Shown piece after piece: positions 53,064 to 53,277 of a stretch of DNA of 64,000 nt. Within the stretch, counting starts at the first letter, position 1. Every line of letters begins with the position of its first letter. The notes beneath the pieces were generated by a model. That model was given only the letters and a program-made list of their open reading frames with translations. It ran no database searches and had not been told where the DNA came from. Source of the DNA: Candidatus Omnitrophota bacterium (GTDB taxonomy: Bacteria > Omnitrophota > Gorgyraeia > Duberdicusellales > 4484-171); the NCBI GenBank assembly GCA_021735655.1, contig JAIPGM010000001.1:1-64000 (forward strand), given 5' to 3'. Made by a program: the position numbers and the translations under genes.

Positions 53064-53277
53064 GATAAAGGCAAACCTCGAGAGATCGAGGAAGCGCAAA
53101 GCCACGGGTCCTACGTTAGTTTATGCAGAAGTGTACGCAGTCAACAACGAGAGTTAGCTTCTAAAGAGAAAACAAGAAGAATTGAGTCAACACTGAGTTA
53201 GCCTTAATTTTGTCTGCGTAAGTCTTATTAAAAAGGATAGCCGGGCTACCGAATCCAAACGGTAACCCGGTTTTTTA
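53064..53277 (+). promoter_or_regulatory. c-di-GMP-I (GEMM) riboswitch candidate D with ~120-nt insertion and intrinsic terminator
   Basis: AAAGGCAAACC, then CUCGA-GAGA-UCGAG, then GAAGCGCAAAGCCACGGGUCCU, then a 120-nt insert, then AAAGGAUAGCCGGGCUACCGAA. Terminator: CCGGGCUACCG / CGGUAACCCGG followed by U6. Confidence 0.75.

Follow-up and report, generated by a model that had tools for sequence, protein, structure and literature searches.

A predicted c-di-GMP-I riboswitch with a 121-nt insert in its variable stem precedes a giant gene in an Omnitrophota bacterium

What does a riboswitch do with some 120 nucleotides of additional RNA in its variable stem? The question is raised by a 64,000-nt stretch of DNA from an Omnitrophota bacterium (the window), in which cmscan with the Rfam gathering threshold found four c-di-GMP-I (GEMM-I, RF01051) aptamers, all on the + strand. 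We call them A (36517-36628, 38.7 bits), B (45196-45283, 58.0 bits), C (46782-46870, 38.2 bits) and D (53060-53253, 50.5 bits, E = 6.7e-7). From the letters alone, it had been noticed that the two conserved blocks of the aptamer are about 120 nt apart in copy D, compared with 15-40 nt in the other three, and the count agrees: the spacing from GGGUCCU to AGGAUAGCC, taken as the exact number of bases between GGGTCCT and (A/C)GGATAGCC, is 39 nt in A, 15 nt in B, 21 nt in C and 121 nt in D. The insert is not one assembler's artefact, because the identical copy D sequence is also found in L001, an independent Logan assembly of the same sample.

Class assignment of copy D and position of the insert

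Copy D scores 50.5 bits against a gathering score of 35 for RF01051, the second-best score among the four copies, and is complete over model positions 1-87. Compared with the c-di-GMP-I-GGC variant (RF03167), it reaches 11.7 bits, below that family's gathering score of 59. All conserved aptamer positions are kept, including the GNRA loop, the AAA linker and the conserved base of P2. P1 has the form described for the class (stems of 2 bp and 6 bp, a 3-nt internal loop and a GNRA cap; Weinberg et al., 2007, PMC1950547), and reads GC / AAA / CCUCGA-GAGA-UCGAGG at 53071-53098. The hairpin itself, CCUCGA-GAGA-UCGAGG with its GNRA tetraloop (53076-53091, + strand), is the same as that of copy B, and a count from the alignment gives about 92% identity between B and D outside the insert. 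In the RF01051 alignment, the consensus G stands at model position 11 of copy D, whose junction further contains CGCAAAG and AGCCGGGCU.CCGAA. We take the conserved ligand-pocket junction nucleotides of the class to be G20, A47 and C92 in Vc2 numbering, and our mapping of the junction nucleotides of copy D onto Vc2 residue numbers is likewise an assumption. Unlike the canonical form, the 11-nt tetraloop receptor of copy D is degenerate (CCUACG...AAAAGG, loop GAGA).

The additional RNA sits entirely at the far end of P2. The 10-bp base of P2 is formed by a 5' strand at 53100-53110 (AGCCACGGGUC, + strand, placed by the RF01051 alignment) and a 3' strand at 53236-53247 (GAUAGCCGGGCU, + strand), with pair probabilities of 0.8-0.99 in the aptamer-only ensemble, and the insert is wholly distal to it. 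By spacing, this P2-apex insert covers 121 nt (53113-53233, + strand), of which the RF01051 alignment counts 110 nt as inserted, in the apical part of the stem; the GEMM-I consensus has about 4-10 nt there. Structure prediction on copy D bore out the expected architecture: in the aptamer-only minimum-energy fold, the GEMM-I P1 and P2 are retained and the insert is an irregular continuation of P2. Copy D thus resembles GEMM-I riboswitches such as Vc2 of Vibrio cholerae in its two-hairpin form, in which a GNRA tetraloop caps P1, AAA links the hairpins and the base of P2 is conserved. It also resembles the class in lying near pilus, secretion and surface genes, and in having a distal part of P2 that varies in length, a property of the GEMM P2 stem already described by Weinberg et al., 2007 (PMC1950547). 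Judged by its sequence, copy D belongs to the c-di-GMP-I class and carries an expansion of the variable stem that is extreme, although of an ordinary kind.

Expression platform and predicted switching

Upstream of copy D, a promoter-like site (TTGACT, 18 nt, TATATT with TG; 10/12 consensus matches) is found at 52990-53019 (+ strand), about 40 nt before the aptamer; this is a consensus match only, and about two such hits are expected by chance in the region. Downstream, folding identifies an intrinsic terminator at 53241-53281 (+ strand), composed of CCGGGCUACCG, the loop AAUCCAAA and CGGUAACCCGG with one C.A mismatch, followed by UUUUUUAUUUU. Its 5' arm is shared with the 3' strand of P2, and this overlap constitutes the 5' expression platform of copy D. 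Copies A-C have the same design. For GEMM riboswitches of this arrangement, terminators were described as competing with the 3' side of P2, such that the ligand would prevent the terminator from forming, an ON model (Weinberg et al., 2007, PMC1950547).

Thermodynamic models place the two folds of copy D in direct competition. Over the full leader, the terminator fold is the minimum-energy structure at -61.4 kcal/mol, compared with -52.1 kcal/mol for a forced aptamer fold. When prefixes of the RNA are folded, the one ending at 53247 adopts the native aptamer fold, with the insert continuing P2, and the one ending at 53282 adopts the terminator fold. The pair probability of P2 correspondingly goes from 0.8-0.99 without the terminator sequence to 0.01 in the full leader. 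Forcing the aptamer fold costs 1.5 kcal/mol in the aptamer-only RNA, both with the insert and with the 15-nt loop of copy B in its place. In the full leader, the cost is 8.6 kcal/mol with the insert, 6.7 kcal/mol with the loop of copy B and 8.8 +/- 2.3 kcal/mol with shuffled inserts. On these measures, which come from models that ignore tertiary structure, kinetics and proteins, the insert would act as an arbitrary spacer.

Copy D reads as a working transcriptional ON switch whose predicted ligand is c-di-GMP. Bound c-di-GMP would hold P1 and P2 together and make the 3' strand of P2 (53236-53247) unavailable to the terminator. With the terminator (53241-53270 plus the U-tract) blocked, RNA polymerase would read into the giant open reading frame (ORF) that begins at 53375, and with no ligand the terminator would win. 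The 121-nt insert would form a loose irregular hairpin, with its core at 53134-53220, in both conformers and would take no part in the switch. High c-di-GMP would then lead to expression of a giant protein of the surface or adhesion type. We give a probability of roughly 65% to this reading, in which copy D is a functional anti-termination c-di-GMP-I switch and its insert a tolerated, nearly neutral, lineage-specific expansion of P2 and not a second sensor; the neutrality is argued from an absence of signal in a lineage sampled once.

Structure and repeats within the insert

The original prediction held that the variable stem of copy D had been greatly extended. There is indeed extra sequence at the apex of this stem, but a great extension of the stem itself is not supported: only 68 of the 121 insert bases are paired in the best model, and the folding energy is at the level of dinucleotide shuffles (z = -0.32 in one comparison, and -0.34 with p = 0.32 in another). 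By the same comparison, the insert is not rod-like, its energy not being significantly below that of the shuffles (z = -0.34). The part that folds independently is a core hairpin at 53134-53220 (+ strand), closed by UACGCAGUCAA / UUGUCUGCGUA and holding a wobble-paired AGUUAGCU / AGUUAGCC helix and a purine-rich tip. In this helix, two copies of GAGUUAGC pair through G.U wobbles, and AGUUAGCU is quasi-palindromic at the RNA level. Pair probabilities within the core hairpin are 0.70-0.78 in the aptamer-only RNA and 0.86-0.98 in the full leader. The hairpin appears to lie outside the switch, since it forms identically in the aptamer (ON) and terminator (OFF) conformers. Between it and the base of P2 are linkers of about 21 and 13 bases that are unpaired or weakly paired.

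The complementary segments UACGCAG and CUGCGUA that had been noticed near 53133 and 53208 are present, as TACGCAG at 53134 and CTGCGTA at 53214. The 7-mer alone is unremarkable, however: an inverted repeat of 7 nt without mismatch is found in 133 of 400 shuffles of the insert (33%). Arms of 11 nt with one mismatch (53134-53144 / 53210-53220) are rarer, being found in 17/400 shuffles (4%). The repeated motif that had also been reported, GAGTTAGC, occurs at 53151 and 53195 and is part of a longer imperfect direct repeat, AGTCAACA(AC)GAG(AG)TTAGC, which starts at 53139 and 53185. In the sequence, its two copies on the + strand read AGTCAACAACGAGAGTTAGC (53139-53158) and AGTCAACACTGAGTTAGC (53185-53202). 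As a 20-nt imperfect repeat it has a local alignment score of 13, compared with a maximum of 12 in 200 shuffles (p<0.005), and it and the 11-nt inverted repeat are the only features of the insert above chance. The direct repeat, the one feature that is plainly non-random, suggests a small internal duplication, and its two units could be a pair of binding sites.

Two smaller features of the insert were seen. Complementarity between the purine-rich tip (53163-53178) and the U-rich tract at 53338-53353, about 20-35 nt upstream of the start codon of the giant ORF, is 75%, and higher if G.U pairs count; both partners are of low complexity. Also within the insert is a 13-codon ORF (53123-53164, ATG...TAA, MQKCTQSTTRVSF) with no Shine-Dalgarno-like sequence before it, which is probably due to chance.

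Searches for a second domain

Could the insert be a domain for an additional input, or a second ligand pocket, as the original prediction had proposed? A permissive scan of 53090-53250 with 4227 Rfam models found no second RNA family, whether aptamer, ribozyme or sRNA. The best other match was to the patAB leader, on the minus strand, at 18.2 bits compared with 92, with E = 1. With no known family nested in the insert, a second pocket or second domain is not what these data indicate. An extra input domain has no support so far, and the shuffle-like fold energy, the lack of an Rfam match or shared motif, and the near-unchanged predicted cost when the loop is swapped or shuffled speak against it. 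As far as the sequence can tell, nothing found points to a protein or sRNA site in the insert.

Comparison with the long inserts of other genomes (described below) gave a similar answer. We found no motif or k-mer common to copy D and the other long inserts beyond chance, and no alignable similarity between them after multiple-test correction. The best case, homology to the insert of the Omnitrophota locus L007, had p = 0.016 before correction for nine comparisons and is not significant. A motif UUAGCUU is common to D, A and the Omnitrophota locus L008, and equal sharing was seen in 28% of shuffled sets.

Two further candidates were examined and set aside. The insert segment 53210-53228 is complementary at 18/19 positions to the + strand at 40952-40970, inside the ORF of a TadE/G-like protein (blastn-short, E = 0.019), and was considered as a trans-acting seed. 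In a duplex scan of the window, this site came only third, with poorly calibrated energies, and we attribute the match to chance. In some folds the 5' part of the insert sequesters the 5' strand of P2 in an anti-aptamer hairpin. It is weaker here than in shuffled heads (p = 0.74), and the other long-insert RNAs lack it.

Composite architectures are known elsewhere. In Clostridioides difficile, a c-di-GMP-II aptamer is coupled to a group I ribozyme, and copy D is similar in that a c-di-GMP aptamer is joined to additional RNA. However, the RNA added in C. difficile is a recognizable, conserved ribozyme beside the aptamer, while that of copy D is nested in P2, matches no Rfam family and is not conserved. 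Peripheral helices of riboswitches tolerate big changes in length without a change in specificity, an example being the long P3 of eukaryotic TPP riboswitches. That P3 expansion, which we liken to copy D, also lies in a helix far from the ligand pocket, although in a riboswitch of a different class and fold.

Long P2 arms in other genomes

We searched for relatives of copy D in species-representative genomes and JGI metagenomes by demanding conserved blocks 106-136 nt apart, and removed matches due to tandem aptamers or chance. Long P2-apex inserts of about 105-135 nt were found in other Omnitrophota, at L008 (the same as L014), L010 (the same as L002 and L005) and L016. A probable GEMM-I with a 114-nt P2 arm is also present at L007 (931-1069). 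Outside this phylum, long P2 arms were found in Bipolaricaulota (L003, with the related metagenome contigs L011 and L018), Fraserbacteria (L004) and Anaerolineae (L006). Apical expansions therefore recur in these little-studied phyla.

The Omnitrophota relatives at L008 (2411-2594), L010 (1591-1771) and L016 (about 6985-7180) share with copy D the conserved blocks GCAAA..CACGGGUC / GAUAGCCGGG, the terminator design, the position of the insert and its approximate size (105-135 nt). Their inserts are nevertheless unrelated to that of copy D in sequence, and are structured rods (z = -2.2, -4.1 and -7.5), in contrast to a z of -0.34 for copy D. The same holds more widely: the nine other long inserts all form rods significantly more stable than shuffled sequence (z from -2.0 to -7.5). 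Three related sequences keep the rod with a few compensatory changes.

Genomic context and the giant ORFs

Copy D lies downstream of a Tad-type pilus locus that includes a secretin (27639), a TadZ/TadA-like ATPase (29422), a TadE/G-like protein (40822) and two T2SSF proteins (43165 and 44029). Behind this locus come several orphan proteins with no Pfam match. The four aptamers fall within 17 kb (36517-53281), interleaved with the Tad pilus genes and the Pfam-less orphan ORFs. For a 608-aa upstream ORF, the protein database match was to itself only. Downstream of the first gene of riboswitch A, the 2.6 kb from 37303 to 39962 contain no ORF of >=150 aa on either strand; small pilin genes or non-coding features may lie there.

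The short-P2 copies A, B and C precede genes of ordinary size. Copy D, in contrast, is followed by a giant ORF that starts at 53375 on the + strand and reaches the end of the window at 64000 with no stop in 3542 codons. In the Logan contig, the called product has 8612 residues and the gene extends past the fetched locus. This predicted target of >8600 codons sets copy D apart from GEMM-I riboswitches such as Vc2. The first 1500 aa have no Pfam match, and residues 1-700 and 701-2100 had no match in the protein database.

Giant ORFs also follow two of the long-P2 relatives in other Omnitrophota, which makes three divergent loci in this phylum. Those behind copy D, L010 and L016 exceed 3542, 3110 and 2287 codons, respectively, and all run off the available sequence. 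The regions from riboswitch to giant ORF are 53060-53375 in the window, 1591-1814 in L010 and 7180-6862 (minus strand) in L016, and the P2 arms measure 121 nt, about 110 nt and about 132 nt. The giant proteins of the window and L016 are homologous (E = 5e-10 at the N-terminus and 3e-15 internally), and that of L010 shares with them only a short N-terminal motif, KPWMR followed by hydrophobic residues. At L003, L004 and L006, the long arms precede ordinary genes.

While the insert shows how much RNA the variable arm of GEMM-I carries with the rest of the switch intact, the more useful point may be the presence in Omnitrophota of predicted second-messenger riboswitches directly before giant genes, beside a Tad pilus locus. 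Some published accounts of the giant genes of Omnitrophota do not mention riboswitches. The riboswitch context would offer a testable handle on expression of the giant proteins, which is predicted at high c-di-GMP, the state of attachment.

Alternative readings

The long arm may be retained before this family of giant genes over long evolutionary distances, and such retention could mean selection for length. The first alternative to a neutral expansion is that selection maintains the long P2 arm as an added module in riboswitches controlling the giant genes of Omnitrophota, with its length and position conserved and not its sequence. Its role could be to dock a protein or sRNA, to provide an RNase processing site, or to stabilize a very long mRNA through 5' structure. 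This would account for comparable arms before the giant ORFs of the window, L010 and L016, two of whose proteins are significantly similar, and for the ordinary-sized genes behind the short-P2 copies A-C. It would also fit the strongly structured rods formed by most other long arms (z from -2 to -7.5) and the AGUCAACA..GAG..UUAGC unit repeated above chance in copy D. However, the association of long arms with giant genes carries an ascertainment bias, as the relatives were retrieved by a pattern demanding a long gap, and it may reflect a single ancestral event. The inserts have no common motif, that of copy D is no more structured than random sequence and matches no Rfam family, and long arms stand before ordinary genes in other phyla (L003, L004 and L006). 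We regard a selected arm as unlikely. If long arms were systematically linked to giant genes, this would point to an unrecognised accessory role of riboswitch expansion segments. A fuller version, which we hold to be less probable again, is that selection keeps long apical P2 arms as an accessory module in the c-di-GMP switches before giant surface-protein genes in Omnitrophota, where they would add docking, processing or 5' protection of 25-100-kb mRNAs, with the AGUCAACA..GAGUUAGC units of copy D as recognition sites.

A second alternative is that the insertion crippled copy D. With 121 poorly structured bases between the strands of P2, the aptamer might seldom assemble in time, and copy D might be a decaying switch that works mainly as a constitutive, leaky terminator. 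The insert is indeed not pre-organised (z = -0.34), its core hairpin is joined to the base of P2 through about 21 and 13 weakly paired or unpaired bases, and in the full leader the aptamer fold costs about 2 kcal/mol more than with a short loop. But a decaying aptamer is hard to reconcile with the retention of every conserved position and a score of 50.5 bits, the second best of four. The aptamer-only minimum-energy fold is native, at a cost of 1.5 kcal/mol that equals that of the short loop, and other lineages keep equally long inserts in intact aptamers. We consider it very unlikely that copy D has lost its function in this way.

Finally, the insert could be an assembly artefact, or DNA that is foreign or repeated, for instance a small mobile element or a segment duplicated from elsewhere in the genome. 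Such an origin would fit its roughly terminal inverted repeats (53134-53144 / 53210-53220), its internal direct repeat, the 18/19 match between 53210-53228 and the opposite strand of 40952-40970 (E = 0.019) and the about 92% identity of B and D outside the insert, as would be seen if D had recently gained the insert or B had lost it. We hold it to be highly improbable: no further copy was found in the 64-kb window or in the 17 other loci fetched, the inverted repeats are internal and not at the ends of the insert, no flanking target duplication was seen, the 18/19 match ranks third in the duplex scan and is compatible with chance, and the Logan assembly has the identical sequence.

Other variant riboswitches at these loci

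Returning to the aptamers themselves, copy B has an A at model position 11 (about 45206), where the consensus is an unpaired G 5' of the first P1 pair. We take this position to be G20 of Vc2, and assume that an A there marks the cGAMP-responsive or promiscuous GEMM-Ib subtype. Because A replaces the consensus G, copy B may respond to another dinucleotide than A, C and D do, or to an additional one.

Unusual arms were also observed among the other loci. On the minus strand of L007 (502-664), an 84-nt insertion of several hairpins extends a GEMM-I aptamer (61.2 bits) at the apex of P1, not P2; the probable long-P2 aptamer at 931-1069 lies about 270 nt upstream of this aptamer. The L008 contig, from Omnitrophota, contains a GGC-variant aptamer (RF03167, 830-957, minus strand, 61.4 bits) whose P2 apex is longer by about 48 nt, together with its long-P2 standard aptamer. 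In L003 (1960-2114), L011 (6464-6610), L018 (3772-3919) and L004 (6471-6604), all on the minus strand, it is the second of two tandem GEMM-I aptamers that is long-armed. Their P2 arms of 109-130 nt are rod-like (z = -4.8 to -6.6), and those of L003, L011 and L018 are built from repeated units of the GGGUU / AACCCGAUAA type. A conserved downstream platform that ends in AGGAGGUG is common to all four.
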